64,000 bases of DNA from Minisyncoccota bacterium (GCA_041663185.1 JBAZQY010000001.1:19448-83447), one strand, 5' to 3'; counted from the stretch's first letter, positions 4,887 through 48,308 are shown. Numbers and translations: made by a program. The notes: generated by a model from the letters alone, not told the origin.

Positions 4887-4969
4887 GCGTCGGTGGCAGA
4901 GTGGTCAATTGCATTTGACTGTAAATCAAACGCCTTCGGGCTACGTAGGTTCGAATCCTACCCGGCGCA
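4887..4969 (+). tRNA. tRNA-Tyr(GTA): tRNA-Tyr (anticodon GTA) with long variable arm
   Basis: Acceptor stem gcgtcgg/ccggcgc with one GU pair, anticodon loop ctGTAaa, T-arm gtagg-ttcgaat-cctac, long variable arm. CCA is not encoded. Confidence 0.85.
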
Positions 4970-8264: not shown

Positions 8265-8804
8265 ATGATTTATGCTATTATTCTAGCCGTCATTGTGATT
8301 CTCTTTCTTCTATTCCGGCCAAGACGCAAAAAAATTGGTGAGGTCGGACAACACTGGAACCATTTCTTTCCCAATTTCCAGTTCTCATCTGCAGAATTTT
8401 ATTCTTTAGTTGAAGAAAAGATTAAAGCTCAAGCAATGCCTAATACCCGAATCTCTAGGGTAAATTACGCCGAATCAAGCATTATTTCAAATAGACGAGA
8501 ATACTTACATATAGAGAGGAAAGAAGACATTTTTGATATTTGTGCCGCTCCATTTGGAACAGGTTTTTTCGTCTCCTATTGGCTTGGAAAGCCAAAGCAT
8601 GCTTTCAGAAATTTTCTTAGTAGAATACCTTACCTTAGTCAAATATCTGAAGGTTGGCAAGGTTCCACGTATTATCTGGCTGATACAGCAAGTATGTTTA
8701 GGGGTGCAGTTGTTAGTTCAATATCAGAGGCCATTGAAGAAATAACAACAAGAAAAGGTTTGCGTGGATTGTCAGAAAGTGAGCAATTTGCGATGGTTAG
8801 ATGA
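8265..8804 (+). CDS. Single-pass membrane protein (N-terminal TM helix), unknown function
   Basis: N-terminal MIYAIILAVIVILFLLF then RPRRKK. The stop overlaps the start of the next gene (ATGA), suggesting translational coupling. Confidence 0.5.
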   Translation: MIYAIILAVIVILFLLFRPRRKKIGEVGQHWNHFFPNFQFSSAEFYSLVEEKIKAQAMPNTRISRVNYAESSIISNRREYLHIERKEDIFDICAAPFGTGFFVSYWLGKPKHAFRNFLSRIPYLSQISEGWQGSTYYLADTASMFRGAVVSSISEAIEEITTRKGLRGLSESEQFAMVR

Positions 8805-10975
8805 GTTACTTTGAATTCTTAACAAAGCAATTTTACACCTGGGAGAAGCGTGGCCGGGGATGGGAGGTATTTTCCTTTCCTGTCGATTTAGAACCTCCGT
8901 ACGAGCCTTTTTTCTCTCATTCCATCCCATATGACAATGCTACCCGTGTCCTTGATGATGGTCTTCGCCCGACTATTTTTTCACGATTAATAACAGGGGT
9001 TAGAAACCTATTCATTTCAAAACCCATTATTTCTGAAGAAATTGTGGAAGATGAACCTGTCCCGCCTTTTACTTTTGATGATGAACCTCTAACAGCCTTC
9101 ACTGTCCTATTACCAAAAGATCAACAAATCAATTTCGAGGAATCTCTTCAATTATTATTAATGCTGTCCATGTCGATGTATCCAATTAGCTTTGAGATCA
9201 TCGGCAATAGCTCGTTCATTAAAATTCAATTTGTATGTCGAAAGCCTGATACACCAAATATTCAAAATCAAATAAAAGCCTATTTTCCGGCATGTCATTT
9301 TGATTTTGGAATATTAGAAGCAATCCTACCTGAAGGGAAACAAGGATATCTTGTAGATTTCGGTTTAAGCCAAGAATTCATGAGACCTCTTTCAGTGATC
9401 AAGAATTTTACGCTTGACCCATATATTGGTCTATTTGGAATTTTAGAGAATCTTTCAGAAGACGAGCAAGCAGTTATTCAAATATTATTTAAAAGTGCTC
9501 AAAACTCCTGGTCAGAAAGTATTATTCGTTCAGTTACAGACAATCAAGGTGATCCATTTTTTCTCGATGCACCAGAGATGGTCAAACTTGCTGAAGAAAA
9601 AATTTCCGCACCTCTTTTTGGGGTAGTGATTCGAATTATAGGACTCAATGAGGATGGTAGCGACTGGTTAGCTAAAAAACTTTCAGGGAAATTAATACAG
9701 ATTACCGGTTCACCATATAATAGATTAATTCCTCTTTCGACTGAGGGATATGATGAAGCTAATTTTTGTGAAGACATTCTACTTCGCCAATCTCATCGAT
9801 TGGGAATGTTACTTAACAGCAAAGAATTAGTTTCATTAATTCATTTTCCCTCTATCTCTGTCGTTTCTAGTAAACTTGAACGAGCAATTAGGAAAACCGT
9901 TAAAGCCCCTAAGATCTTTTTAGACCATAAGCTTGTACTAGGAAGTAATTTTCATCAAGGCCAGGCAAAGGATGTGACTATTGGCCCCGAACAAAGGTTG
10001 AAACATATCCATGTTATAGGAGCAACCGGCACTGGTAAGTCTACTCTTCTCCTTAACATGATAATTCAAGACATTAGAAACGGAGAAGGATTAGCAGTGA
10101 TTGACCCTCACGGTGATTTAATTGAAAGTATCCTACCCTGGATTCCTCCAATTCGTCACAATGATGTAATCATCTTTGATCCATCTGATACTGAATATCC
10201 AATTGCCTTTAATATTCTTACAGCTCATTCAGAAATTGAGAAAGATATCTTATCATCTGATCTTGTAGCTGTCTTTAAGCGTCTTTCCACCAGTTGGGGA
10301 GATCAAATGAATTCAGTCTTTGCCAATGCTATTCTTGCCTTCCTGGAAAGTGATAAAGGAGGAACCTTAATCGATTTACGCAAATTCCTTATCGAAAAGG
10401 AGTTTCGAGCTGATTTTCTGAAAACTGTTAAAGACCCCTCAATTACATATTACTGGAACAAGGAATTTCCAATTTTAAAAAGTACTTCAATTGGGCCAAT
10501 TTTGACCAGGTTGGATGCTTTCTTGAGACCGAAAGTCATCAGAAATATGGTTGCCCAAAACAAAAGTCTGGATTTTGAAAAAATCCTGGATGACAAGAAG
10601 ATACTGCTTATTAAGCTCTCACAAGGGTTAATAGGAGAAGAAAATAGCTACCTCTTGGGAGCATTCATCGTCTCAAAACTTCAGCAAATAACGATGTCTC
10701 GCCAAGTGAAAGCCAAAACTGCTCGCGGGAATTTCTATTTATACATTGATGAGTTCCAGAATTTCATCACCCCTTCCATGTCCGCAATACTCTCTGGTGC
10801 CCGAAAGTATCACTTAGGGATGGTCTTGGCACATCAGGGTATGCAACAGCTTGATAAGAATAACTCTGAAATCGCAAGCTCTGTTATTGCAAATGCCGGC
10901 ACTCGTATCTGCTTTAGGATTGGCGACATTGATGCGAAGAAGCTTGAAGCTAACTTTACACACTTTGATGCGTAG
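8801..10975 (+). CDS. Soluble P-loop NTPase, T4CP/FtsK-HerA-like, paralog 2 with roughly 390-aa N-terminal extension
   Basis: Walker A GATGTGKST, VIDPHGDL, YPIAFNIL, Walker B YLYIDEFQNF, ARKYHLGMVLAHQGMQQL. Clear paralog of 6834-8153. Confidence 0.7.
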   Translation: MSYFEFLTKQFYTWEKRGRGWEVFSFPVDLEPPYEPFFSHSIPYDNATRVLDDGLRPTIFSRLITGVRNLFISKPIISEEIVEDEPVPPFTFDDEPLTAFTVLLPKDQQINFEESLQLLLMLSMSMYPISFEIIGNSSFIKIQFVCRKPDTPNIQNQIKAYFPACHFDFGILEAILPEGKQGYLVDFGLSQEFMRPLSVIKNFTLDPYIGLFGILENLSEDEQAVIQILFKSAQNSWSESIIRSVTDNQGDPFFLDAPEMVKLAEEKISAPLFGVVIRIIGLNEDGSDWLAKKLSGKLIQITGSPYNRLIPLSTEGYDEANFCEDILLRQSHRLGMLLNSKELVSLIHFPSISVVSSKLERAIRKTVKAPKIFLDHKLVLGSNFHQGQAKDVTIGPEQRLKHIHVIGATGTGKSTLLLNMIIQDIRNGEGLAVIDPHGDLIESILPWIPPIRHNDVIIFDPSDTEYPIAFNILTAHSEIEKDILSSDLVAVFKRLSTSWGDQMNSVFANAILAFLESDKGGTLIDLRKFLIEKEFRADFLKTVKDPSITYYWNKEFPILKSTSIGPILTRLDAFLRPKVIRNMVAQNKSLDFEKILDDKKILLIKLSQGLIGEENSYLLGAFIVSKLQQITMSRQVKAKTARGNFYLYIDEFQNFITPSMSAILSGARKYHLGMVLAHQGMQQLDKNNSEIASSVIANAGTRICFRIGDIDAKKLEANFTHFDA

Positions 10976-34503: not shown

Positions 34504-35775
34504 TTAGAATTTCAAAATTTGCTTGAATGTACTATCATCTTTAAATGGTCCAATTATCGCTAAATTCAAATTTTTGGTTTTAAAAATAGTTTTCGCGATC
34601 TTTTGTATATCGCTTGCTTTCACTTTTTGGATGTCTTTGATTTTCTCTTCTAGGGTTTTTATTTCCCCCTTCATCAACTCTTGTCCACCGTAAAAGTTTG
34701 CAATATCATCTGTTGCTTCAAGTGACATTTTCATATTTCCAATAATGAATGATTTCACTTTATTTAATTCTTTTTCACTTACTTTCTCATTTACCAAAAG
34801 ATTACACTCTTTCAAAATTTCTTTTAAGACTTCCACGGTTCTTTTATTATTTACTCCAGCCGATATCTGGAAACTTCCATGATCAAGTGAAGAATTATTA
34901 AAGGCTCGAACATAGTAAGCTACCCCCATCTCTTCGCGAAGCTTTATAAAAAGTCGTGAGCTCATTCCTGCTCCGAGTATTCCACCAAGCAATGAAAGAG
35001 TCATGTTTCTTTTATCAAATAAAGGAAAAGTTCGAACTCCAAGCACGAAGTGCGTCTGGTCTGTCTCTTTATATTTTACTAAAACATTTGGCCTCGTCTG
35101 AATATCTTTGGTTTTTACTTTTTTAATTTTATTTGTCGATTTAATATCTTTAAAATATTTATTTACTTCTTTGTGAACTTTCTCACTTTGAATATTCCCA
35201 GAGACAATAATCACCGTATTCTTCGCGACATAATGACTTTTTTTGTAATTCACAAAATTGGGACGTGTCATTCTATAAATATTTTCTTTTTGCCCGGCAA
35301 TACCTCTTCCTGCTGGTTGATCAGGATATAAAACTTTATCAAAAAGTTCTTGAACGTGACTTTGAGGCATGTCCTCATACATATTTATTTCTTCGACAAT
35401 TACCCCTTTCTCTTTTTCAATTTCCGCCTCTGGAAAAGTCGAATTTAAATAAATATCGGAAACAATATCAAAAATCTGGCTGAAATTCTTCGCGTCGCCT
35501 TTGGCGTAGTATCCAGTCATTTCATGGTCTGTAAACGCATTATATTGGCATCCAAGGGCATCTAATTCGTGAGAAATGGACTGCGGAGTGAGTCTTTTTA
35601 TTGTTCCCTTAAAGCACATATGCTCCAAAAAGTGAGATATGCCATTTATCTCTTTTGTCTCATAATTACTCCCCGTGCCCACAAGGACAAGTACCGTAAC
35701 CGTCGGATTGTCCTTCATCGGAACTGTAATAACCCGCAAACCATTTTTATATGTTTTCTTTTTAGCTTTTTGCAT
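34504..35775 (-). CDS. M16 family zinc peptidase (insulinase-like)
   Basis: Inverted zincin motif HFLEHMCFKGT (HxxEH). Confidence 0.8.
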   Translation of the reverse strand: MQKAKKKTYKNGLRVITVPMKDNPTVTVLVLVGTGSNYETKEINGISHFLEHMCFKGTIKRLTPQSISHELDALGCQYNAFTDHEMTGYYAKGDAKNFSQIFDIVSDIYLNSTFPEAEIEKEKGVIVEEINMYEDMPQSHVQELFDKVLYPDQPAGRGIAGQKENIYRMTRPNFVNYKKSHYVAKNTVIIVSGNIQSEKVHKEVNKYFKDIKSTNKIKKVKTKDIQTRPNVLVKYKETDQTHFVLGVRTFPLFDKRNMTLSLLGGILGAGMSSRLFIKLREEMGVAYYVRAFNNSSLDHGSFQISAGVNNKRTVEVLKEILKECNLLVNEKVSEKELNKVKSFIIGNMKMSLEATDDIANFYGGQELMKGEIKTLEEKIKDIQKVKASDIQKIAKTIFKTKNLNLAIIGPFKDDSTFKQILKF

Positions 35776-35781
35776 ATTATT

Positions 35782-37155
35782 TTAATTCATTCTTTCTTTT
35801 ATATAGTGAGAAATTTTTTCTTTTTTAATTCTTTCTTGCTTGCCAGTATCACGATCGCGAATAGTTACAGAATCATCAGTCAAAGTATCAAAGTCGATAA
35901 CAATGCACCATGGGGTCCCTATTTCATCTTGCCGGCGATAACGTTTTCCAATATTTCCATTGTCATCCCAAGCAATCCACCCAAATTCTTTTTTCAGTTC
36001 ACTGTAAATATTTTTTGCATATGAGACAAGTTCTGGTTTATTTTTTAAAAGTGGCGACACGCAGGCCTTGTAGGGAGCTACAATCGGTGGAAACTTCAAA
36101 TAAACTCGCATATCGTCTCCTTCACCCTCTTCTCGATACGCAGAGCAAAGAAGAGCAAGAATCGCACGATCAACACTGATTGTCGGCTCAATAACATGCG
36201 GAATAAACTTTTCTCCAGTCTGGTCATTTAGCATTTCCATGGATTCCCTTGAGAATTCTTGGTGTCGTTTTAAGTCGTAATCTCCACGATGAGCAAGGCC
36301 AGTAAGTTCTTTCCTTCCAAATGGATATTCAAATTCTAAATCAACCGTTTTTCGACTGTAATGGGCTCGAGCCGTATCTGGGTGCTCAAGTGGAGAAAGT
36401 TTTGTCACATCAACTCCAATTTTTGAAAGCCAATCTTTTTGTTCTAGTAAAAAATTATCAAAATATGCTTCCCAAGGATCACTCGGGTGAATAAAATATT
36501 CAAACTCCATTATTTCAAATTCACGTAATCGATAAATGAAATCCCGTGGGGTTATCTCATTTCTAAATGCTTTCCCAACTTGAGCAATTCCAAATGGAAC
36601 TTTTGGAGATAGTGATTGTAAAACATTTTTGAAAGCCACAAACATACTTTGAGCTTCTTCTGGTCTTAAATATGTATTTACTGAAGTTTCTTCCACCGCT
36701 CCCATTTTTGTTTCAAGCATTAAATTAAAAGTGCGTACTTCAGAAAGTGCATTCCCATCCGGACTCTTAAGCCCAAGTTCTTTTATTTTTTCTCCCATCT
36801 GTTCGATTGTTAATTTTTCTGAATCAACTCCAGCTTCTTCAAGTAAATGATCAGCGCGATAACGCTTTTTTGTAACCATATCATCGACAAGAGGGTCAAT
36901 GAATTCACTTGTATGCCCAGACGCATCCCAAACTCTTGGGTGCATTAATATTGGTGTATCAATAAGATACATATTGTCTTTAAACTCAATAAAATATTCT
37001 ATCCATGATTTCTCAATATTTCTTTTAAGTAATGCTCCAAGTGGCCCGTAATCGTACGTCCCAGCTAGGCCACCATAAATCTCTGACCCTGGGTAAATAA
37101 ATCCGCGTCGTTTGCAAAGTGATATTATTTTTTCCATCGTTAAATTATTTTCCAT
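35782..37155 (-). CDS. glyQS: Glycyl-tRNA synthetase (alpha2 type)
   Basis: Class II motifs. N-terminal ...RRGFIYPGSEIYGGLAGTYDYGPLG. Confidence 0.85.
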   Translation of the reverse strand: MENNLTMEKIISLCKRRGFIYPGSEIYGGLAGTYDYGPLGALLKRNIEKSWIEYFIEFKDNMYLIDTPILMHPRVWDASGHTSEFIDPLVDDMVTKKRYRADHLLEEAGVDSEKLTIEQMGEKIKELGLKSPDGNALSEVRTFNLMLETKMGAVEETSVNTYLRPEEAQSMFVAFKNVLQSLSPKVPFGIAQVGKAFRNEITPRDFIYRLREFEIMEFEYFIHPSDPWEAYFDNFLLEQKDWLSKIGVDVTKLSPLEHPDTARAHYSRKTVDLEFEYPFGRKELTGLAHRGDYDLKRHQEFSRESMEMLNDQTGEKFIPHVIEPTISVDRAILALLCSAYREEGEGDDMRVYLKFPPIVAPYKACVSPLLKNKPELVSYAKNIYSELKKEFGWIAWDDNGNIGKRYRRQDEIGTPWCIVIDFDTLTDDSVTIRDRDTGKQERIKKEKISHYIKERMN

Positions 37156-37215: not shown

Positions 37216-39138
37216 CTATTTCACCACTCGCGCATTTGCTGGTAAGAAATTGGAAACATTCAACAATAATGTAGTAATTGGGCCACGAGTACTTTTGATT
37301 AAAACATTTGCGAATGTATCTGTCCCTGAGAGATACACCTCTTTCATAAGCTGAGGCACACTACCGACTTGTGATAATGATGGTTTAATAGAAATATAGA
37401 AAGAAGCTTCACTATTTGAATTTATTCCGGTGTTCGGATTCACTTGCCCAATATTCCAAGTCACTTCACGTGTTACTTCATTATAAGTAACATTTTCATT
37501 TTCCCCAGATGTTATACCAACCCATTTAATATATATCGGTAAAGCAGCATGGGCTTGAGCCTGATTTATGTTATTTGTTGAATTTGAAAGTGTCCAAGTC
37601 ACAGCGTACGTTGTCTCCGTTTCAGCTTTTGGAGGCATGCTTCCTGAAACGTATGTTGCTGATGAGACAATCTGGAAATCAGATAATATTTTTACAATTT
37701 TTTCAGAAAAATTATTGACATCATCATATGTCGAGCCAAGTTGTGGTTGCCTACCCTTAATACTTACCTTAAGAGAAACTTGTGGATCTTTTATGGTATT
37801 GGTTAGACCAACATAAGAAGGAACTTTGAAACTAAATGAGACTTCTCCCGTTTCGCCTGGATTTATTTCTGCTAGATTAGGAATAGAATTCTTGTCCCAG
37901 ATAATTTGATTGTTGGCAGAGTCATAAAAACCATTTGAAGGTTTAACCATATCCTTGTCGAAAGAATTACCAGATAGTCCTACAATAATTTGTCCGTCAG
38001 TAATAAGCGTCGATAGATTATTTGCCCAAGCAACAGCAACATCTACCTCCTCTCCACCAGAAACTGCATACTCGGGAAGATCTTGGCTGTTCACTAATAT
38101 ACGAGCTTCAAGGAATGGTCTCGCAATTACAACTTTCTGTAATACTGAACTATAGATAACATTAATAACGGATTGGTTCATTTCTCCAGTAGCCCCCGCA
38201 TACGCATGAAAAACTTGTTCGTCTCCATCTTGACCAACCAAGCGCCCTCTAACTTCGACAACAATAGGGTCTTCTGCTGTTAGGGTGGATAAATCCCAAA
38301 AAGAATTTCCAAGAGTCGGCATTGGAATAGCACTTTCAAAAATAAAATTATTTGGATATGTTATTTGAAGCATTGGATTCTCATCTGGTAGAGAAGTATT
38401 GAGAGTTGCCGTAACCTTAAAAGAAATTGGTTGATTGGCTGTCGCACTTGATGGTCCATCCATTATCAAAGAAAGCGGAGCCAAGCTGATTGTTACAGGA
38501 TAAAATTTATCTTTAGTAAAAATTGCATTTGACCCCTGAGGATGATACTCTAAACCAATTTTAATATTGCGAATGGATTTCTCTTCTCCAAAAAGTTTTA
38601 CTTTAACATTACGAATAACACTTTCCCCGGGTTTAATTGTTCCAATCGCATCACGAGGCAATCGGACAACATCTGTAACATTATCTTCCGCTCCCTTCGG
38701 GTATTCGATAATTAAATTTGCAAGTTCTAGATTTGCATTATTTTTATTTGTAATCTCAATTTGTAGAGGCAATTCATCCCCACCTTTAGTAAAAGCATTT
38801 CCAATAACAACAATATCTATTTTGTCATTTGAAACCGAGACATCATTACTGTAGAATTTATAAAAAGCAAAACCCAATGCTCCAACAAAAAAAATGGCCG
38901 AGGCAATAAAAAATTTCTTAAATACTGATTTCTTTGGTTGCTTAAATTTATTATTCATATTATCATCCTTTCTCGTCTGATCATCACTCCACTTTTCGTT
39001 CACTTCATGATTAACTTGATGTAACACTCCTTCTCGGTCATGAACCATCGATGGATCATTTGGATCATAAAGATGCATTTTTATATCTTCAATTTTATTT
39101 TTCCTTTCTTCTACCATACTCTCCTTATTATAGCACAA
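37216..39138 (-). CDS. Large bitopic membrane protein with extracytoplasmic beta-rich domains, unknown function
   Basis: Cytoplasmic N-terminus of about 70 aa, one TM (FFIASAIFFVGALGFAFY), then about 550 aa of extracellular repeats. Confidence 0.5.
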   Translation of the reverse strand: MCYNKESMVEERKNKIEDIKMHLYDPNDPSMVHDREGVLHQVNHEVNEKWSDDQTRKDDNMNNKFKQPKKSVFKKFFIASAIFFVGALGFAFYKFYSNDVSVSNDKIDIVVIGNAFTKGGDELPLQIEITNKNNANLELANLIIEYPKGAEDNVTDVVRLPRDAIGTIKPGESVIRNVKVKLFGEEKSIRNIKIGLEYHPQGSNAIFTKDKFYPVTISLAPLSLIMDGPSSATANQPISFKVTATLNTSLPDENPMLQITYPNNFIFESAIPMPTLGNSFWDLSTLTAEDPIVVEVRGRLVGQDGDEQVFHAYAGATGEMNQSVINVIYSSVLQKVVIARPFLEARILVNSQDLPEYAVSGGEEVDVAVAWANNLSTLITDGQIIVGLSGNSFDKDMVKPSNGFYDSANNQIIWDKNSIPNLAEINPGETGEVSFSFKVPSYVGLTNTIKDPQVSLKVSIKGRQPQLGSTYDDVNNFSEKIVKILSDFQIVSSATYVSGSMPPKAETETTYAVTWTLSNSTNNINQAQAHAALPIYIKWVGITSGENENVTYNEVTREVTWNIGQVNPNTGINSNSEASFYISIKPSLSQVGSVPQLMKEVYLSGTDTFANVLIKSTRGPITTLLLNVSNFLPANARVVK

Positions 39139-39143
39139 AAATC

Positions 39144-39728
39144 CTATAACTGACTTTCATTTAAGGCATTGTTTATATGGGCAATTATGGATTGACGTTC
39201 TTTGAGTAAGACCTCTATTTTACTTTGATCAAATGCAGATGAGAGATATTTTTCGAGAATTGCTGAGTCACCTATGTATCCCAAACTATTTAGAATCCGC
39301 AAGACTAGGTGTAATTCAAGAGCTTCTCGAGATTGCGAAGAAACATTTTCATCATCTAATAAATAGAGGGCTTGAATGAAATCATTAAAAATATTTTCAT
39401 TTGGGCTCTCTCCATGACAAAGTCTCTCGAGCAAGTTACTAACTCGCATTATTAAAACAAGTGATGCGGTATTACTTCTTGCTAGGGAGAAAGAAGAAAT
39501 ATGTCTGGCTGAAGTCACTCGCCAAATTTCTTTCCCTCTAACTAAGTCGACATTTACATAAGAAAAATCCTGCAAAGTAAAACGGAGTTTTGATTTATGA
39601 AATCGTACCCCTTGAGCAACAGCTTTGATGAGGCCCAACTCGCGAGTATAAATCGTGAGCATTTTATTGGCTTCGCCGGTATTGCGAGACGAAAGTATAA
39701 ATCCATGAGTGTGGTGTATGTGATGCAT
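39144..39728 (-). CDS. recO: DNA repair protein RecO (His-rich N-terminus)
   Basis: RecO OB-fold pattern GFILSSRNTGEANKMLTIYTRELGLIKAVAQGVR. Confidence 0.7.
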   Translation of the reverse strand: MHHIHHTHGFILSSRNTGEANKMLTIYTRELGLIKAVAQGVRFHKSKLRFTLQDFSYVNVDLVRGKEIWRVTSARHISSFSLARSNTASLVLIMRVSNLLERLCHGESPNENIFNDFIQALYLLDDENVSSQSREALELHLVLRILNSLGYIGDSAILEKYLSSAFDQSKIEVLLKERQSIIAHINNALNESQL

Positions 39729-39765: not shown

Positions 39766-40329
39766 TTATTTCATCATTTTTAATAATGCTTCTAGGGCTT
39801 GTGATAATTCAAAACATTTTTCATCTGGTGATAAATGGCCTCCGCCTGGAATTGGAACTAAATTACCAGAAACTTTTTCAGTTAAATATCCTGCATCATA
39901 AAATGAAACCACATTATCACTATCCCCATGGATTACTGTAAAATTTTTACATGTACTTTTTATATGATCAAAATCAAATGCACCATCTAAAAAAGCATTA
40001 ACTTGTTCATATCCATCTTTTTCTATTTTGGCTATTGGCCCCGAGACTAATACAGCCCCTCCGATTTTAGAATCTTTATCTAAAAATTCTAAATACCGCA
40101 AAATAGCCGGAACTCCCAAAGAATGCCCTACTAAAAATATTCCCTCGTTTGGTACTCCGACAGCTTCACTAATGGTTTTTATCCATTCACTTTTTATGGG
40201 GTTATCTGGTGTAGGCATTGGCAAAGAACATGCATATACTCCATGTTCAGCAAGTCCATTCATAAGCCATGATTTCCATCCACCATTCGGAGTCCCCATA
40301 AACCCATGTACAATAAATACTTTTTTCAT
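39766..40329 (-). CDS. Alpha/beta hydrolase (serine hydrolase)
   Basis: Nucleophile elbow GHSLG (LVGHSLGVPAI). Confidence 0.7.
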   Translation of the reverse strand: MKKVFIVHGFMGTPNGGWKSWLMNGLAEHGVYACSLPMPTPDNPIKSEWIKTISEAVGVPNEGIFLVGHSLGVPAILRYLEFLDKDSKIGGAVLVSGPIAKIEKDGYEQVNAFLDGAFDFDHIKSTCKNFTVIHGDSDNVVSFYDAGYLTEKVSGNLVPIPGGGHLSPDEKCFELSQALEALLKMMK

Positions 40330-40330
40330 A

Positions 40331-40969
40331 TTATATTTCTTCTTCTTTCCCTATTTCTAATTTTATAAAATTAATATTATCTTCTTTCAAAAGTTTTTCG
40401 GGAATTCTCCATGTAAAAGTTGCAAAATCTTGCATTATCGCATCATGTACTGGGAAACAAATTCTTGGTCTTATATTTTTCGCGTAATCAATTGCATCTT
40501 TCATTTTCATCCAAGGCCCAGCTACAGGAAGTGCGAGTATATCTACATCGGTATCTGGATAATTAAATGAATCTCCGCCATAACATAAATTATCTATCAT
40601 ATAACCAGTATTTTGTACTACTCCATACTCTCGATAAATTTCTGCGTGAGCATTACCAAATCCAATAATATTTACACCCGAAACTCCATATCTTTCCCCT
40701 TCCTCAACTTTTATATACACTATTTCTTCCTTATCAAGAATTTTACCAACAACTGTATTCGTGATAACAATTGCATTTGGATTATTTCCAAGAACTTTTT
40801 TTAATGAATCAATATGTAAATGATCACTGTGTTCATGAGTAATTAAAATAGCATTAATATTTTTTTCTTCAACCTGTAACACTGAAAAGGCCCCCGGATC
40901 AGTCATAATTCTGACTCCATCTTTAGGTTCTACAACAAAACAACAATGTCCTAATTTCTTAACTTTCAT
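40331..40969 (-). CDS. MBL-fold metallo-hydrolase
   Basis: HxHxDH motif ILITHEHSDHLH. Confidence 0.75.
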   Translation of the reverse strand: MKVKKLGHCCFVVEPKDGVRIMTDPGAFSVLQVEEKNINAILITHEHSDHLHIDSLKKVLGNNPNAIVITNTVVGKILDKEEIVYIKVEEGERYGVSGVNIIGFGNAHAEIYREYGVVQNTGYMIDNLCYGGDSFNYPDTDVDILALPVAGPWMKMKDAIDYAKNIRPRICFPVHDAIMQDFATFTWRIPEKLLKEDNINFIKLEIGKEEEI

Positions 40970-40999: not shown

Positions 41000-43900
41000 T
41001 TATTTCTCAATAGTTATTTTAAAGACAATTTCTCCTGTTTTTATTTCTTCTCCGGTATTTCCCTTGAATTGTATTTCTTTTGCACTTACTGCTTTCATTA
41101 ATTCAGATTTAAATTTATTTATCAATTCTTGCCCTTCAGTATTTGTCTCAACAATAAGGGTAACAACATCACTAGGATTTAATCCATTATTTTTTCTGAT
41201 ATCTTGAATAGCTCGAACAAGTTCACGATACTGCCCTTCTTTCTTTAATTCCGGAGTTATATTTGTATCAAGTTCAACTTTTTGTTCGTCCCCCTTGATA
41301 AATTCAACTTCCTTAATATTTAACTCATCTTTAAGAATTTCCTGATAATCAATTGGTAATTGGTAATTGGTAATTAGTAATTTACTAAGTGGTTGCCTAA
41401 CGGGGATACCCTCTTTTTGCCTTGCTTGTAAACCAAGTGTAACAATATCACGAGCCTTTTGCATTTCTTCAATAATTTTTAATTCTTCATTGTTAATTCT
41501 TAATTCATTCTCAGGCCATTCTGCTAAATGCACACTCTCCTCATCTTTTTCATTTTTTAATTTCTGCCAAATATCCTCACTAGCAAATGGAGTAAACGGC
41601 GCCATTAATTTAATTAATGTTTTTAGAACATAGTAAAGAGTAATTTTTGCTTGTTCTTCTCCTTCTTTTATTCTGTCGCGTGAGCGACGTAGATACCAAG
41701 TTGAAAGATCATCAATAAAATCACGAATTGCTCGCACCGGTTCAAGAAGTTTGTAGTCATCTAATTTTTGTGTGCATTCATCGGTTAATTCCGTCAATCT
41801 TGCTATTATCCATTGATCTAAAATGTTATCTGATTTTTTGTATTCAATATTTTCTAACTCTATATCGCGATATAGTTCATAAAAAGCTAGCACGTTGTAA
41901 AGCAGATTAAATACCTTACTGTGAAGTTCCGCCACAGTCTTTTCATCAAAGTTTTTTGATTCCCCAGGTTGATTAACTGCATACATCCACAAGCGCAAAG
42001 TATCAACTCCATATTTGTCCATCATGGACCATGGGTCAACAATATTTCCGAGCGACTTACTCATCTTCTTCCCTTTTGCATCAAGTAAATGTCCTAAACA
42101 AATAACATTCTTGTACGCTTTACCTTTACCCATAATTGCTCCAACTGCATGAAGTGTATAGAACCATCCACGTGTCTGATCAATCGCTTCTGAAATAAAG
42201 TCGGCTGGGTACCCACCTCCTTTTTCAATTAAGTCTTTATTCTCAAAAGGATAATGATCTTGAGAGAATGGCATCGTTCCTGAATCAAGCCAAACATCCA
42301 TCACCTCCTTTACTCGAACAAGATTCCCCCCACAATCACAAGTAAGTTCTACTTCATCAATAAATGGTTTATGCAAATCAAGTTCATAATCTTCATTATG
42401 GGGGATAGCTACAAAATTATATTCTTCAAAATTTCCAAAATCTACAGGGTCCTCTTTCCAGTTTTTCCAAGCTGTCTTGACATCATCTCCATTAAGAATT
42501 GACGGTAACACTTCAAAAACTATCCCGTGAGCAACAAAAAGAATGTTTTCGCCTGAATACTTTGATTCCATCTCATAAATAAAATTAGCCACACGCTTTT
42601 TTGCTTCATAACATGATTCACCACCTTCCGGAGGAGTAAAAAAATCTTCGTGTTTCTTTCTCCATTCATTATAATCAGTTTTTGATTTACCATTATAAAT
42701 ACCGAAATTATATTCATGTAATCTTTCATCAGTAATTATTTGTTCCCTGGAAAAACCAATTACATCAGCAACAATTTTTGCTGTCTCTTGTGTTCGGATA
42801 AATGGGGATACAAATATTTTTGTAATTTTTTTATTTCGCAATTTCTCTGCCATTTCTTTTACATATTTTTTACCATTTTCAGTTAAATGATGAGGAAGAT
42901 TTGGATCACCCCCACTACAAACATTCAAAATGGTATGTTCCCCTTCTCCATGCCTCATTCCAAAATATTTATTCCCTGATCTTTTGGTTTTAGATTTTAA
43001 ATCTTCAACACTTCCAATAACTTCAACTTTATTGCATTTATCACAAGTCCAAACAGGAAGTGGGCTCCCCCAATAACGCTCACGAGAAATTGCCCAGTCT
43101 TTAATTTCTCTTAGCCATTCACCAAAACGTCCTTCTTTGATATAAGCTGGTTCCCAATTTATTCCTTCATTTTCTTTCACGAGTTTATCTCGCAACTGTG
43201 ACATCCTAATATACCAAGAGTCACGAGCATAATAGATAAGCGCCGTGTGACATCGCCAACAATGTGGGTATGAGTGCTCATATTTTTCTTTCTTAAATAA
43301 AAGTCCTCTATGAGCCAAATCTTTAATTATATCAACAGCGACTTCTTCATCGCGAACAAATCTAAAACTTAAATCTAAATCACCTTGTTTCATTTCAGAA
43401 TAAAAAGTTCCATTCAATCCCACTAAATGATGTTTAGGTAAATTTAATTTATTCCCTAAGGTGAAGTCATCCTGTCCGTACATTACAGCTGTATGCACAA
43501 CACCTGTACCATCTTCTGTGGTCACAAAATCAGCTGGGTATATTTTATAAGCATTAACCATTTTAGCTGATTCTGTTTGATTTTGTCTTATTTCATTTTC
43601 TAAAAAAGAATACAGCGGTTCATATTCAAGACCAATTAAATCTTTACCCTTAATATCATCGTACACAATTTCTATTTTTTGGTCTTCAAATACATTCTCA
43701 ACACGTGCACTAGCAAGAATATATAATTCAGAAACCCCATCAACTCGTAATGCTGTATAAGAAATATTTTCACCAACAGCTAAAGCTACATTGCCTGGTA
43801 GTGTCCACGGAGTTGTAGTCCAAGCTAGAATATATGCAGAATCTTTTGTTTCTTTATTGCCGCCATATTTTTGACCTGATTTCAATTTTAATTTCACATA

Positions 43901-44533
43901 CACCGACAAATCTTTTACATTTTCATATCCTTGGGCAAGTTCGTGCGAAGAAAGTCCTGTCCCGCAACGAGGACACCAAGGCACAACTTTATAATCTTTA
44001 TAAAGTAATTTTTGTTTGTCAGCTTCTTTGATAACATTCCAAACCGACTCAATATAATCATTATGATAAGTCACATAAGGATTTTCTTGATCAACCCAAA
44101 AACCAATTCGTTCGGTAAATTTATTCCAATATTCCAAATATTCCCAAACACTTTCTTTACATTGCTGGTTAAATTTTGCTATTCCATATTCCTCAATTGC
44201 TTTCTTTGAAGAGAGCCCGAGTTTCTTCTCAACTTGAAGTTCAACTGGTAAACCGTGCGTATCCCATCCACCTTTTCGGCGGACATGATAACCTCGCATA
44301 GTTTTGTATCGTGGAATAACATCCTTGAATGCTCTAGCTTCTAAATGATGTATCCCTGGTTTACCATTGGCAGTCGGTGGCCCTTCATAAAAAACATACT
44401 CACCCTTGGATGCATCTTTTTCTAAACTCTTTTTGAATATTTCCTGCTCTTTCCAAAACTGTAAAACTGCCTCCTCTCGTAAGGCAGATGCTGACTTTTT
44501 TGCTTCATTTTCATTTTCTGACATATTTCTCAT
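41000..44533 (-). CDS. ileS: Isoleucyl-tRNA synthetase with an in-frame insertion of a histidine-phosphatase (phosphoglycerate-mutase family) domain
   Basis: IleRS N-terminus (PPTANGKPGIHH, WDTHGLPVE), CP1 editing domain (TTPWTLPGN), KMSKSLGN. The insertion at about aa 515-718 (nt about 42380-42991) carries RHGE, SPFIRTQETA and VAHG. Confidence 0.9.
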   Translation of the reverse strand: MRNMSENENEAKKSASALREEAVLQFWKEQEIFKKSLEKDASKGEYVFYEGPPTANGKPGIHHLEARAFKDVIPRYKTMRGYHVRRKGGWDTHGLPVELQVEKKLGLSSKKAIEEYGIAKFNQQCKESVWEYLEYWNKFTERIGFWVDQENPYVTYHNDYIESVWNVIKEADKQKLLYKDYKVVPWCPRCGTGLSSHELAQGYENVKDLSVYVKLKLKSGQKYGGNKETKDSAYILAWTTTPWTLPGNVALAVGENISYTALRVDGVSELYILASARVENVFEDQKIEIVYDDIKGKDLIGLEYEPLYSFLENEIRQNQTESAKMVNAYKIYPADFVTTEDGTGVVHTAVMYGQDDFTLGNKLNLPKHHLVGLNGTFYSEMKQGDLDLSFRFVRDEEVAVDIIKDLAHRGLLFKKEKYEHSYPHCWRCHTALIYYARDSWYIRMSQLRDKLVKENEGINWEPAYIKEGRFGEWLREIKDWAISRERYWGSPLPVWTCDKCNKVEVIGSVEDLKSKTKRSGNKYFGMRHGEGEHTILNVCSGGDPNLPHHLTENGKKYVKEMAEKLRNKKITKIFVSPFIRTQETAKIVADVIGFSREQIITDERLHEYNFGIYNGKSKTDYNEWRKKHEDFFTPPEGGESCYEAKKRVANFIYEMESKYSGENILFVAHGIVFEVLPSILNGDDVKTAWKNWKEDPVDFGNFEEYNFVAIPHNEDYELDLHKPFIDEVELTCDCGGNLVRVKEVMDVWLDSGTMPFSQDHYPFENKDLIEKGGGYPADFISEAIDQTRGWFYTLHAVGAIMGKGKAYKNVICLGHLLDAKGKKMSKSLGNIVDPWSMMDKYGVDTLRLWMYAVNQPGESKNFDEKTVAELHSKVFNLLYNVLAFYELYRDIELENIEYKKSDNILDQWIIARLTELTDECTQKLDDYKLLEPVRAIRDFIDDLSTWYLRRSRDRIKEGEEQAKITLYYVLKTLIKLMAPFTPFASEDIWQKLKNEKDEESVHLAEWPENELRINNEELKIIEEMQKARDIVTLGLQARQKEGIPVRQPLSKLLITNYQLPIDYQEILKDELNIKEVEFIKGDEQKVELDTNITPELKKEGQYRELVRAIQDIRKNNGLNPSDVVTLIVETNTEGQELINKFKSELMKAVSAKEIQFKGNTGEEIKTGEIVFKITIEK

Positions 44534-44793: not shown

Positions 44794-45390
44794 TTAATAT
44801 ACCTCTTTTTGATAGCAACTTTCACAATAAATAATTTCCGGTCTTTCTGGTGCATACGATGTTTCAAATTCATTCGTGCAACCTTCATTCATACACTTCC
44901 TGTGCCAAAGCTTAGACGGACCCCTAAGTTTGAAACGCTTTTCCAATCTACAAAGAAAACAGCTTCTAGGGATTGGGATTTTCCATTTTCTATAAAAAGA
45001 AAGTTCATCCACTATTATTTTATAATTTCTTTTGCAAATATCACATTCCAAAACTTCTTCTATTATTGAATCTAGAATATCTTCAATATCGTCTGGGATT
45101 TCAAATAAAGTAGTTTTCCCTTCCGTCTTCTGTATATTATTTTGCCAAACAAGTCCTTTTTTGAGAATTTCTTCTTTACTTAAAGGAAAAGAGAGCATGG
45201 CCATTGATTCATTGTAAGCAAATGGGGATTTATCCATTGGGAAAAATTCTCCCCACTCACCTGTATTTTTCATATGCTCGATAATTTTTTCTTTTAATTT
45301 AAAATATTCTTCTTTACTATATTGTTTATTAAAAATCATGTACTTGGAGTGTTTCAGTCCAGCACAACCAAAACATTCCTGACAAGACAT
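44794..45390 (-). CDS. Cysteine-rich hypothetical protein (multi-CxxC), paralog of the upstream gene
   Basis: N-terminal CQECFGCAG... KYMIFNKQYSKEEY matches the C-terminus of 45424-46461. Its C-terminal CxxC pairs match that protein's N-terminus. Confidence 0.5.
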   Translation of the reverse strand: MSCQECFGCAGLKHSKYMIFNKQYSKEEYFKLKEKIIEHMKNTGEWGEFFPMDKSPFAYNESMAMLSFPLSKEEILKKGLVWQNNIQKTEGKTTLFEIPDDIEDILDSIIEEVLECDICKRNYKIIVDELSFYRKWKIPIPRSCFLCRLEKRFKLRGPSKLWHRKCMNEGCTNEFETSYAPERPEIIYCESCYQKEVY

Positions 45391-45423: not shown

Positions 45424-46461
45424 CTAGGAAGTCACAGTAAAAGAAGCTCGGTGGGAATGGTCAGGAGTCACACCTTCATAACACTGTTCTAACTCACCTC
45501 CAACAGACAAATCATAACTATTTTTTTGGACATCACCATTCTCAAGATATTTTGAATCTTCTGCTTTATGGGAATGAAAAACATATTTGGAATTTTTACT
45601 ATTAAACAAATTCTGTCCTTCACACTTAAAACAATTAATTTGATTTGCAAACTTATGCGGTTGTTTTAATAAAAATATATTAAATTCTTTCTTTGCTCTT
45701 TCTACTCCAGAATATGTGTCCAGCTTATATTCGTCAAGAATTTTTTCGTATTCTTTTTTTGTATATTGTTTATTTAGAATACAATATTTCTTTCCTTGAA
45801 GATTTGCGCACATAAAACAGTCTGTGCAACCTCGACATGAATAACAAAAACTACAATTAACTAAATTTGCAGATTGCTGAATATATTTTGATCCAAAACA
45901 CCTGTCACTATACATTACTTCATAAATACCCTCACTTTGATTAAATATTCCCATACAATCAACTCCATCTTTCATATTCCCTCCATATGAAAAATACATG
46001 CAGTTTTCCATTTTCCAGCAAACCATAGCCATATAACAATTTTTTCCATATGCAAAATCTTGAGTATATTCACAATTTACACTTCCTACATTGTTATCAT
46101 TGATTAAAGCTAGCGCTGGTACTTTTTGACGAAGTTCCGTAAATTGATCAAAAAAGGAGCGAGAAAAATCAAAATCCTGTCCATAACTTTTAGGATTCCA
46201 ATTGTCTCCCCACCAGCATTTATTACAATAAATTATTTGCGTTTTATCTGGAGAATAGATTGATATTATTTTTCTTTTACATAAATCACATTCACGATTA
46301 TAAAGAGAAAATTCATTCCTATATGCCAATCTTCTTTGGCTGCGACACTCAGGGCAAAAAGTCGGTGGAGGAACTTTAATTTTCTCATAAAATCCAAAAT
46401 CATCCAGCTCAATAGTAAAGTCATTTTTGCAGTTTTGGCATTGTTTTACTTCAGAATTCAT
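45424..46461 (-). CDS. Cysteine-rich hypothetical protein (four CxxC pairs plus a CxxCxxCxxCxxC cluster)
   Basis: CQNC, CPEC, CDLC, CNKC; NCSFCYSCRGCTDCFMCAN; KKYCILNKQYTKKEY. Confidence 0.5.
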   Translation of the reverse strand: MNSEVKQCQNCKNDFTIELDDFGFYEKIKVPPPTFCPECRSQRRLAYRNEFSLYNRECDLCKRKIISIYSPDKTQIIYCNKCWWGDNWNPKSYGQDFDFSRSFFDQFTELRQKVPALALINDNNVGSVNCEYTQDFAYGKNCYMAMVCWKMENCMYFSYGGNMKDGVDCMGIFNQSEGIYEVMYSDRCFGSKYIQQSANLVNCSFCYSCRGCTDCFMCANLQGKKYCILNKQYTKKEYEKILDEYKLDTYSGVERAKKEFNIFLLKQPHKFANQINCFKCEGQNLFNSKNSKYVFHSHKAEDSKYLENGDVQKNSYDLSVGGELEQCYEGVTPDHSHRASFTVTS

Positions 46462-46574: not shown

Positions 46575-48308
46575 TTACATTTTTTCTGGAGATTTTATTC
46601 CTAGGAGGTTCAAGCCATTTTTGATAACTATAGAAAATGCTTCGGTTATCGCTAGTTTATATGGTGATGTTAGATCATCTTTATCAACTATTTTTGTGTT
46701 GCCGTAGAAAGTATTGAAGGAACGGGCAAGATTTATCAGGTAATTTGCAATTTGTTGTGGAGCAAAATCTTCCGCACTCCTCATAACTATCTCAGGAAAA
46801 CGATTAAGCAATTTCTCTACTTCTGTCGTTCCCCAACCCTCTGGTACAGTAGTTTCTATTTTTATATTTTCATCTTTGGCTTTTTCTAAAATTGATTTAG
46901 CGCGAGCGTATGAATACTGCAAATATGGACCGGAATCACCATTTAAATTAATTATTTCTTCCCAATCAAAAATTATGTCTTTCTTGCTTTCTCGTTTTAG
47001 ATCATTAAACTTAATAGCCCCAATACCAACTTCTTCTGACACATCGCTATTAATAGTGCTTGCTCGACTGACAGCTTCATTTATAATATCATCAAGCCAT
47101 ATCACATTCCCTTTTCTGGTGCTCATCTTTCCATCTTTAAATCGGTACAATCCATGAGCTAAATGAATTCTCTGCTCTTTTGTAAAGTAACCAAGCATTT
47201 CTTCTGCTTCGAAAATTTGCTTAAAATACTCTGATTGCTCAGTTCCGACTTCATTTATAATTTTTATATCATCACCATACTCCTTCTTCCTCCATTTATC
47301 AGTAGTTAAATCGCGAAGAGCATACAAAGACGACCCGTCTTTTTTGGTAATCATCAATGGGTTTAATTTTGTTTCATCAGGGAAAAATATTAAAAATGCT
47401 CCTTCACTTTCTTTGCCGAGATTTTTATTTTTTATATCTTCTAGCACTTCACCCATTTTATTTTCATAAAAACTTTCTCCATTTATAGTATCAAAGTCAT
47501 TTATATCTAATCGTTCGTATATTCGATGAAATTCTTTCATCGAATACGAAATGCATTTCTGCCAAATGGCTACTGCTTCAGAATCTTTCTTTTCCAACCT
47601 AGAAAACCATTCTCGCCCTTCATCTTCAAGTTCTGGATTTTTCTCTGCTTCATCGTGAAATTTCACATATAAATCAACAAGCGTTTTAATGGGAGATGGG
47701 TCATTTTCGAGAGCATCTAAATTACCCCACTTTTTAATAGCGACAATCATTTTCCCGAATTGCGTGCCCCAGTCACCTAAATGATTATCTCGGATCACTT
47801 TGTAATCAGAAAACTCTAAAATTTTAGAAACTGAGTCACCAATAATTGTCGAGCGTAAATGGCCGATGGTAAATGGTTTAGCAATATTCGGAGATGAATA
47901 TTCGACAAGAATTTTTTTACCCTTACCAATTTTATTCTTTCCGAAATCTTCTTTTTCTTTTAAAATTTCTTTTATACTTTCAGCAAAAAATTCTCCTAAT
48001 AAATAAAAATTAATAAACCCAGGACCAGCAATCTCAACTTTTTTAATTTCTTTTGGTAAATTTTTTTCTAATTCATTTTTAATTTTTTCAGCAAGTTCTT
48101 TTAGATTAATTTTTAAACTTTTAGCACAAACCATTGCTACATTCGTCGAATAATCACCATTTTTATTATCATCTGGGTGCTCAACTGAAAAATCAACTTC
48201 ATTGATATCAAGATTTTTTAAAACTTTTTGTATTATTTTTTCTATTTCTTCTTTCATTTTATTTTTTCCCTGTACTTCCAAACATTCCTTCACCTCTAGA
48301 TGAATCAC
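46575..48308 (-). CDS. argS: Arginyl-tRNA synthetase
   Basis: Class I ArgRS HIGH-type region SSPNIAKPFTIGHLRSTIIGD, plus an anticodon-binding DALR-like C-terminus. Confidence 0.85.
   Translation of the reverse strand: MIHLEVKECLEVQGKNKMKEEIEKIIQKVLKNLDINEVDFSVEHPDDNKNGDYSTNVAMVCAKSLKINLKELAEKIKNELEKNLPKEIKKVEIAGPGFINFYLLGEFFAESIKEILKEKEDFGKNKIGKGKKILVEYSSPNIAKPFTIGHLRSTIIGDSVSKILEFSDYKVIRDNHLGDWGTQFGKMIVAIKKWGNLDALENDPSPIKTLVDLYVKFHDEAEKNPELEDEGREWFSRLEKKDSEAVAIWQKCISYSMKEFHRIYERLDINDFDTINGESFYENKMGEVLEDIKNKNLGKESEGAFLIFFPDETKLNPLMITKKDGSSLYALRDLTTDKWRKKEYGDDIKIINEVGTEQSEYFKQIFEAEEMLGYFTKEQRIHLAHGLYRFKDGKMSTRKGNVIWLDDIINEAVSRASTINSDVSEEVGIGAIKFNDLKRESKKDIIFDWEEIINLNGDSGPYLQYSYARAKSILEKAKDENIKIETTVPEGWGTTEVEKLLNRFPEIVMRSAEDFAPQQIANYLINLARSFNTFYGNTKIVDKDDLTSPYKLAITEAFSIVIKNGLNLLGIKSPEKM

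Follow-up and report, generated by a model that had tools for sequence, protein, structure and literature searches.

Why would an isoleucyl-tRNA synthetase (IleRS) hold a histidine phosphatase within its catalytic domain? This question is raised by the ileS gene in a stretch of 64,000 nucleotides from a Minisyncoccota bacterium (GCA_041663185.1, JBAZQY010000001.1:19448-83447), which was analysed as a whole and is called the window here. Aminoacyl-tRNA synthetases (aaRSs) are among the most conserved enzymes, and it is rare for the class I Rossmann fold to gain a new catalytic domain. An earlier note on this DNA had described a segment of roughly 200 residues with phosphatase motifs in the middle of the synthetase. 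According to our analysis the gene product is almost certainly a type-2 IleRS (IleRS2) with a nested His_Phos_1 domain. Our overall reading, to which we assign a probability of roughly 55%, is that of a bifunctional IleRS2-phosphatase, which would remove a phosphate near the synthetic site in a step coupled to isoleucylation.

The host gene is a single, unbroken open reading frame (ORF) of 1177 aa (41000..44533, minus strand, as are all features within ileS given below), and its uninterrupted frame, as claimed before, was confirmed. The product passed the equivalog cut-off of NCBIfam TIGR00392 ileS (870.4 bits vs 621.4). Its Pfam matches are arranged as two tRNA-synt_1 halves around His_Phos_1, followed by Anticodon_1 (aa 906-1051) and DUF5915. 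The nearest structures are those of the IleRS2 from Priestia megaterium (8C8W, 787 bits) and of the T. thermophilus enzyme (1ILE, 775 bits), while type-1 structures scored lower (PmIleRS1 8C9F, 327 bits; S. aureus 1FFY, 312 bits). The class I signature GXHH is present as GIHH (aa 60-63, 44345..44356), the KMSKS loop (aa 823-827, 42053..42067) is intact with K823, S825 and K826 invariant, and the editing motif WTTTPWT of connective peptide 1 (CP1) is found at aa 238-244. Judged from these motifs, the host is a complete IleRS2, in which the GXHH, KMSKS, editing, anticodon-binding and C-terminal elements are all intact and which by homology is expected to isoleucylate tRNA. A swap of HXGH to GXHH in IleRS2 was shown by experiment to give mupirocin hyper-resistance, and IleRS2 tolerates the GXHH form (PMC10485003). 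GXHH is common to the close homologs of the window protein, and HxGH is found in most of the distant insert-bearing relatives. The protein scored below the cut-offs of the MupA/MupB families (NCBIfam NF000257/NF000258; 776 and 781 bits vs 1900) and of ileS_w_GNAT (NF040702; 319 bits vs 1999), and no acetyltransferase Pfam match was obtained for it.

The position of the insertion was derived from alignments with IleRSs lacking it. Residues 14-513 of the window protein correspond to residues 8-475 of 8C8W and residues 712-1087 to 480-858, which leaves about 198 aa in place of about 4. The closest insert-free relative found, an IleRS encoded at locus L087 (60% core identity), places the boundaries at about K513 and E716 (about 204 aa): it reads '...VIGSRKEL-GIDEKF-DLHRPYIDE...' vs '...VIGSVEDL-[K513...E716]-LDLHKPFIDE...' in the window protein. 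In the nearest insert-free IleRSs the site is a loop of 4-6 residues. The nested domain accordingly covers aa ~513-716 (42386..42997); the previously proposed limits of about aa 515-718, which map exactly to nucleotides 42380-42991, differ from the alignment boundaries by 2-3 residues at most. The flanking segments were also found as described, with PVWTCDKC at aa 493-500 and DLHKPFIDEV...CDCGG...DVWLDSG at aa 719-752. The domain separates the two halves of a zinc knuckle, C497-x-x-C500 on its N-terminal side (43034..43045) and C732-D-C734 on its C-terminal side (42332..42340), and these cysteines are kept in at least 90% of the sequences. The region corresponds to the CP3 subdomain of published IleRS structures (PMC7191050, PMC7955072). 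The topology of CP3 varies among IleRSs, and the zinc motif occurs in the T. thermophilus form only (PMC7191050). A CP2-CP3 linker, KDWAISRERYWGSPLP (aa 478-493, 43055..43102), is homologous to that of yeast IleRS, where the linker 453-ARDWNVSRNRYWG-465 lines the pocket for the tRNA CCA end and reveromycin and is directly followed by CP3 (PMC7955072). Its counterpart in the window protein is KDWAISRERYWG (aa 478-489). The G+C content amounts to 0.30-0.34 in the insert and 0.34-0.40 in the flanks, without a compositional break.

The identity of the inserted domain follows from sequence profiles and from structure prediction. A scan with Pfam hidden Markov models (HMMs) gave a strong match to His_Phos_1 (PF00300) at aa 526-690, with E=1.4e-29 and 103.6 bits vs a threshold of 21.7 bits, flanked by the two tRNA-synt_1 halves. 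In the full-length AlphaFold2 model the insert reached a predicted local distance difference test score (pLDDT) of 81-94 and was the best-predicted stretch of the protein's middle. When modelled alone on an alignment of 64 sequences, it gave a pLDDT of 85.2 and a predicted template modelling score (pTM) of 0.83. Both models thus support a fold that forms an independent domain. A Foldseek search with the insert model returned 271 PDB matches at E<=1e-3, with template modelling (TM) scores of 0.70-0.78 to PspA, PGM, GpgP, PhoE and CobC. PspA (4IJ6) was the best match (TM 0.76-0.78); S. pombe PGM, GpgP Rv2419c, PhoE, HFP 9MMH, CobC and TIGAR were also among the nearest folds. These are compact histidine phosphatases of small molecules, which were the closest solved relatives by sequence too, and the domain can be described as PhoE/PspA-like. 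On this evidence the guest reads as a bona fide branch-1 histidine phosphatase outside the characterised equivalogs, and the host as a bona fide IleRS2.

The insertion is not confined to one assembly. PF00300 is present in all of the 120 closest full-length homologs (63-100% identity, 1138-1234 aa); these stem from NCBI, JGI, ENA and Logan assemblies named Paceibacterota, Nomurabacteria or Pacebacteria, and one of them (P0083, Nomurabacteria GW2011_GWE1_32_28) is represented in UniRef. The window protein itself (P0001) was found with identical sequence in NCBI, JGI and ENA. When the insert with short flanks was searched against 1.84 billion cluster representatives, 85 were retrieved at E<=1e-30, most of them IleRSs of 1100-1270 aa that matched over both flanks with 30-48% identity; in 82 of these 85 the CP2-3 linker precedes the domain and DxWFDSG follows it. 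The nested domain is encoded by at least 194 GTDB species genomes from across the Paceibacteria, among them Nomurabacteria, Zambryskibacteria, Adlerbacteria, Yonathbacteria, Taylorbacteria and others. For the GTDB and locus searches a closer alignment was used, a diverse alignment of 18 sequences being too divergent for a pattern-based locus search. The same insertion is therefore widespread in the ileS genes of the lineage, and an assembly chimera, which the earlier note had kept in view, is excluded by the recurrence of the architecture in hundreds of independent assemblies. As far as the window goes, the feature is specific to IleRS, since no extra domain is present in the ArgRS, the MetRS and a class II aaRS encoded there.

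The motifs taken as hallmarks of the phosphatase were located in the translated sequence, RHGE at aa 527-530 and SPFIRTQETA at aa 576-585. The segment LFVAHG, which had been said to hold an acidic residue and a second histidine, contains the histidine (H669 in VAHG, aa 667-670) and no acidic residue; the latter is E607, which lies in RLHEYNFG. In an alignment of the window protein and 119 homologs, the predicted catalytic residues are all invariant: R527 and H528 of RHG, H528 being the predicted phospho-accepting nucleophile (codons at 42950..42955), R580 as the second phosphate-binding Arg (42794..42796), E607 as the predicted general acid/base (42713..42715) and the second catalytic histidine H669 (42527..42529). 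S576, R647, L550 and G554 are invariant as well. In this alignment the mean identity to the window protein was 41% for the insert vs 75% for the synthetase core. Among more distant sequences (33-65% identity), R527, H528, R580 and H669 remained invariant and E607 was present in at least 90%. We further aligned 154 copies of the domain, comprising nested, tandem, alternate-site and standalone forms, to a local HMM. R and H of RHG were found in all 146 copies covering the position and R580 in 153/154, whereas position 607 was occupied by E in 142/154 and by D in 9/154; R647 and H669 were each kept in 149/154. The concern that the catalytic residues might be replaced in homologs thus proved unfounded, as they are invariant in the 120 sequences and kept in 142-153 of the 154 copies. 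The constancy of these residues in an insert of only 41% mean identity, as compared to 75% in the core, reads as a signature of purifying selection for catalysis, beyond that for the fold. The nested domain is probably a catalytically active phosphatase.

A second line of evidence comes from a split form of the same pair. The representative search also brought up genuine standalone phosphatases of about 190 aa, and with one of them (P0263) as query a standalone family of Patescibacteria emerged, with 318 matches at E<=1e-10 that are annotated as 'histidine phosphatase family protein' or 'PhoE'. All 7 contexts examined show the standalone gene between argS and an ileS gene that is free of the insert (818-983 aa, no PF00300). 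The distance to ileS is often minimal: a gap of 1 nt was found in the order argS, phosphatase gene, ileS at L081/L082, the phosphatase ORF extends 7 nt into the start of ileS at L087, and the two genes directly adjoin each other at L089 and L090. One to three variable genes are interposed at L083/L084, L085 and L088. A six-frame HMM scan detected only the embedded copy in 80 insert-bearing loci and the whole 64-kb window, and only the standalone copy in 10/10 split loci. The nested and the split state thus exclude each other throughout the 90 loci examined. In 55/80 insert-bearing loci argS lies upstream on the same strand and in about 10 of these it directly abuts ileS, at the place that the standalone gene would take. 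The standalone proteins share 27-36% identity with the window insert and up to 47% with other nested copies. Phosphatase and IleRS form a conserved partnership, split or nested, across Patescibacteria. In rough neighbour-joining trees the split-type IleRS cores are scattered among the nested ones, and the argS-adjacent standalone phosphatases form one clade. Since these trees conflict and their branches are long and star-like, they were not used to decide between insertion and fission or to count such events.

Further architectures were found among related IleRSs. Tandem copies occupy the CP3 site in P0247 (two) and P0147 (four). A second site, between DxWFDSG and KMSKS, is used in P0232 and in P0191, whose CP3 site is empty, and a third, after KMSKS and before the anticodon-binding domain, in P0191 and P0266. 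The catalytic residues are kept in the tandem and alternate-site copies too. The copies share only 33-47% identity among themselves and with the standalone forms; they are therefore old and no recent duplicates. Some relatives carry other extra domains, namely a GNAT domain in P0226 (1561 aa) and a small P-loop kinase in P0253, where this generic kinase stands beside the phosphatase; the window IleRS is without a kinase domain. The architectures of P0191 and P0226 were recovered on 6 and 13 independent contigs, respectively, of up to 1-2 Mb (up to 2.1 Mb for P0226), and the kinase variant on a single contig. P0226, which combines GNAT and His_Phos, falls outside the NCBI family ileS_w_GNAT (241 bits vs 1999). 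For the kinase of P0253 no solved relative was found by sequence, and its matches were the generic AAA_18/AAA_33 as well as weak ones to Zeta toxin, CPT and APS kinase. The catalytic domain of IleRS seems to be a hotspot at which small-molecule-modifying domains are gained.

What could such a phosphatase do in an IleRS? From knowledge of the family, H528 would attack a phosphomonoester to give a phospho-histidine intermediate, R527, R580 and H669 would hold the phosphate, and E607 would protonate the leaving group and then activate water. We propose that the domain dephosphorylates a ligand of nucleotide type which is handled in or close to the synthetic site, for example a 2'/3'-phosphorylated adenosine such as a blocked A76 end of tRNA or a phospho-adenosine nucleotide, and that this dephosphorylation would be physically coupled to isoleucylation. 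A selected functional coupling of the phosphatase with IleRS is somewhat favoured by the evidence: nesting at three sites, together with translational coupling in the split form, suggests that proximity to, or stoichiometry with, the IleRS catalytic centre was selected. Selection for proximity would explain why an operon partner became nested at three sites, possibly more than once. Inferred from the architecture, all three sites would fall within the second half of the Rossmann fold and close to motifs lining the adenylate/A76 pocket.

The nature of the substrate can be named only tentatively. A nucleotide or a tRNA end is a possible class, with the odds rather against it. More specific, and unlikely as it stands, is the suggestion of a dedicated IleRS partner that clears phosphate from adenosine or the A76 end, in a 'repair-then-charge' reaction or as active-site hygiene. 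3'-(pyro)phosphorylated tRNA ends occur in nature and are made by toxSAS enzymes. A candidate would be a 2'/3'-(pyro)phosphorylated 3' end of tRNA-Ile left by ribotoxins or toxSAS-like enzymes; another would be a 3'-phospho-adenosine nucleotide that poisons the synthetic site. The suggestions of the earlier note, namely a phosphorylated nucleotide or sugar such as a pNp-type tRNA end or an alarmone, or an acquired regulatory module, are further candidates. Contacts between CP3 and tRNA are not described in the IleRS structure papers examined.

Several observations weigh against a coupled phosphatase-synthetase. The window protein has a threonine, T534 (codon 42932-42934, minus strand), at the position where 126/146 copies have the Asn of RHGxxxxN; Thr occurs in only 2 copies. 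This Asn is common in the His_Phos_1 family and not strictly defining, and the activity of the window phosphatase might be reduced. The full-length AlphaFold2 model, built on a shallow alignment of 40 sequences, reached a mean pLDDT of 69.9 and a pTM of 0.46 with a low-confidence Rossmann core, so that the domain orientation is unreadable from it. The nearest solved relatives of the insert all act on small metabolites and none on RNA, and we know of no branch-1 histidine phosphatase that dephosphorylates RNA 3' ends. The insert missed all NCBIfam equivalog cut-offs (CobC, 73.8 vs 162.9; dPGM_arch, 69.2 vs 225; PspA, 52.8 vs 350; GpmB, 52.1 vs 261; SixA, 33.2 vs 74.5), as did the standalone homologue P0263, and it therefore belongs to a distinct subfamily without assigned specificity. 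The mean isoelectric point is 9.35 in the standalone family vs 5.9 in nested copies, but ArgRS and IleRS of the same split-type genomes are equally basic; charge was thus rejected as a sign of RNA binding and attributed to proteome bias. The order argS-ileS-recO is conserved as a block, and the adjacency of the standalone gene could in part be inherited synteny. Finally, the proposal gives no reason why IleRS alone should need such an activity.

Some of these points are accommodated by a different explanation, in which the domain is an ordinary small-molecule phosphatase with a chemistry unrelated to isoleucylation. A phosphatase for phosphoserine, sugar phosphates, phosphoglycerate or a cofactor intermediate would have lodged in its operon neighbour ileS in streamlined genomes and gained only co-expression or stability. 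The closest structures and family models, all of metabolite phosphatases (PspA, GpgP, PhoE, HFP, CobC, dPGM), fit this view, as does the conserved gene order of the region, and the free phosphatase of sister lineages means that its presence in cis is not strictly required by IleRS. A neutral fusion of neighbouring genes, however, would be expected to join them end to end and not to place one about 1.5 kb inside the other. Nesting at three sites with up to 4 copies and catalytic residues always intact, the strict complementarity of split and nested states and the translational coupling of the standalone gene to ileS in some genomes also speak against a mere passenger. The genomic context points in the same direction, as infC-rpmI-rplT and smpB lie upstream of argS in the split loci and aaRS genes flank ileS in both arrangements. 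On balance we consider a metabolic passenger rather unlikely, although it is the main rival.

A role in defence would keep the phosphatase functionally tied to the synthetase: it would inactivate a phosphorylated antimetabolite or inhibitor, or reverse a toxin-made phosphorylation of IleRS, and the GNAT and P-loop kinase domains of related IleRSs would protect in a similar way. GNATs and kinases are enzyme classes typical of antibiotic modification, and the His_Phos superfamily includes the protein phosphatases SixA, PGAM5 and Sts-1. The recruitment of such domains at neighbouring sites and the GXHH motif of the host, linked to mupirocin hyper-resistance, are in line with this. On the other hand, the GNAT and kinase variants are rare (a single contig for P0253) with weak family matches, and the insert does not track the resistance motif, since most of the distant insert-bearing relatives have HxGH. 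To our knowledge there is neither a phosphorylated IleRS inhibitor nor a kinase toxin that targets IleRS. Defence is therefore improbable as the function of the domain.

The insert could also be a structural or allosteric module, such as a sensor of a phospho-ligand, a dimerisation surface or a replacement of a part of CP3, in which the 'catalytic' residues only bind a ligand. The highly variable topology of CP3 among IleRSs (PMC7191050), tandem arrays of 2-4 copies, which resemble scaffolding more than catalysis, and the lack of the RHGxxxxN Asn in the window protein are compatible with such a module. It is made very improbable by the retention of the full catalytic set across copies of 33-47% identity, including the general acid E607, which would serve turnover and not binding, and by the same residues in free-standing homologues. 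An artefact or a selfish element, be it a chimera, a frameshift-masked gene pair or an intein-like insertion that is spliced out, is effectively refuted: the sole hint is a conserved 'PHN' at the C-terminal junction, superficially like the His-Asn of inteins, but intein splicing requires C, S or T after the terminal His-Asn and the junction reads ...PHN|E, no Hint/intein Pfam match was obtained for the insert, the fold is that of His_Phos and not HINT, the frame and base composition are continuous, and the protein recurs identically in independent repositories and with the same architecture in at least 194 species.

Comparison with known systems places the bifunctional IleRS2-phosphatase among several partial precedents. 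The IleRS2 structures 8C8U/8C8W of Priestia megaterium and 1ILE/1JZQ of T. thermophilus show full-length collinear homology (E ~1e-235) and share the class I motif (GXHH here), KMSKS, CP1 with WTTTPWT, the anticodon-binding domain and DUF5915, and in the T. thermophilus enzyme also the CP3 zinc knuckle CxxC...CxC; they differ in having the CP3 loop of 4-6 residues instead of the phosphatase of about 204 aa. Compact branch-1 phosphatases of about 190-210 aa (PspA 4IJ5/4IJ6, PhoE 1EBB/1H2E, GpgP Rv2419c 4PZ9/4QIH, CobC 6E4B and the riboflavin-pathway HFP 9MMH) have the same fold and the same catalytic set of RHG, second Arg, Glu and second His. Their identity to the insert is only 20-26%, they are free-standing and not nested, and the window protein has Thr in place of the usual Asn of RHGxxxxN. 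The standalone phosphatases of Patescibacteria (P0263, P0344, P0312) agree with the insert in family, residues and neighbourhood, but are separate polypeptides of about 189 aa whose partner ileS has an empty CP3 site.

An IleRS with an extra catalytic domain has a precedent in ileS_w_GNAT (NF040702), curated as an exception family, in which the extra domain is a GNAT. A branch-1 phosphatase joined to a nucleic-acid enzyme is known from the RNase H/CobC-like acid phosphatase (PRK07238, M. tuberculosis Rv2228c type), the second-best NCBIfam match of the insert (70.9 bits vs a cut-off of 326); this is an end-to-end fusion with another partner enzyme. The CP1 editing domain is the classic hydrolase nested in the Rossmann fold of class Ia aaRSs. 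Like the domain described here, it is an autonomous hydrolase in a connective peptide of the catalytic fold, and its target is a synthetase ligand. All of IleRS, ValRS and LeuRS possess CP1, which hydrolyses mis-acylated products, whereas the domain in the window protein is lineage-specific, lies in CP3 and is by family a phosphomonoesterase. The PNKP-type kinase-phosphatases of RNA end healing offer an analogy only; PNKP phosphatases belong to other folds, and the 3'-phosphatase usually comes together with a 5'-OH polynucleotide kinase. Full-text literature searches brought up no account of an aaRS that contains, or is partnered by, a histidine phosphatase. This agrees with the remark in the earlier note that the arrangement could not be attributed to a known IleRS type, while the sequences themselves are abundant and automatically annotated.

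The only labels that these proteins bear in public databases are 'class I tRNA ligase family protein' and 'isoleucyl-tRNA synthetase'. Because the former annotation says nothing of the second domain, a phosphatase activity would be invisible in metabolic reconstructions of candidate phyla radiation (CPR) bacteria. A second hydrolase in CP3 of IleRS, with purifying selection on every catalytic residue, extends across a whole class of them, the tiny and uncultured Paceibacteria, and the minimal genomes of these hosts make it likely that retained functions matter. The Rosetta-stone signal is unusually clean, the phosphatase being encoded either within ileS or immediately upstream, with no case of both among the 90 loci. 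If the proposed coupling is true, it would represent an unrecognised phosphate-removing step tied to isoleucyl-tRNA synthesis, with tRNA-end repair, nucleotide hygiene, inhibitor defence or regulation as candidates. An operon neighbour that is nested at several sites of its partner is also a natural example of use for studies of domain-insertion evolution and for protein engineering.

The surroundings of ileS in the window resemble those of the split loci. Upstream lies argS (ArgRS, 577 aa; 46575..48308, minus strand), identified by Pfam tRNA-synt_1d, DALR_1 and Arg_tRNA_synt_N, as a synteny anchor. Downstream, recO (39144..39728, minus strand; Pfam RecO_N) serves as anchor in nested and split forms, being present in 66/80 related loci and in the split loci. 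In the latter it is followed by genes for a membrane protein of about 600 aa, a class II aaRS and an M16 peptidase, and the window shows the same order, with a 640-aa ORF (37216-39138, minus strand; no Pfam match), a class II aaRS gene (35782-37155) and an M16 peptidase gene (34504-35775) downstream of recO. The 640-aa ORF gave faint CLIPPER matches only and is syntenic in 59/80 related loci and in split-type loci; its product is likely a membrane or surface protein.

Between argS and ileS of the window two cysteine-rich ORFs (44794-45390, 198 aa, and 45424-46461, 345 aa; both minus strand) fill the interval and thus sit in the slot of the standalone gene. They contain many CxxC pairs, have no Pfam match and have homologs in 4/80 related loci. 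A gene for a Ser_hydrolase (YdeN-like alpha/beta hydrolase; 39766-40329) and one for an MBL-fold hydrolase (40331-40969) lie between ileS and recO on the minus strand. The MBL-fold and Ser_hydrolase genes occur in only 11/80 and 9/80 related loci, respectively, and were dropped as functional clues. In the split loci, the genes interposed between the phosphatase gene and ileS are an RHH/ParE toxin-antitoxin pair together with HD_3, a phosphohydrolase (L083, 8652-9819), a 330-aa protein without assignment (L085, 8814-9806) and CYTH, a triphosphate tunnel protein (L088, 6570-7160). NUDIX genes are found nearby in split-type loci, and several of the intervening or nearby genes encode nucleotide or polyphosphate hydrolases.

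Near the start of the window a tRNA-Tyr gene (4887-4970, plus strand) is overlapped at its 3' end by an ORF for a serine recombinase with Resolvase and Recombinase domains (4941-6455, minus strand). An ORF resembling type IV secretion coupling proteins (TrwB/TraG; 8801-10975, plus strand) follows after the recombinase ORF, and this region may represent an integrative or conjugative element that has entered the genome at the tRNA gene.

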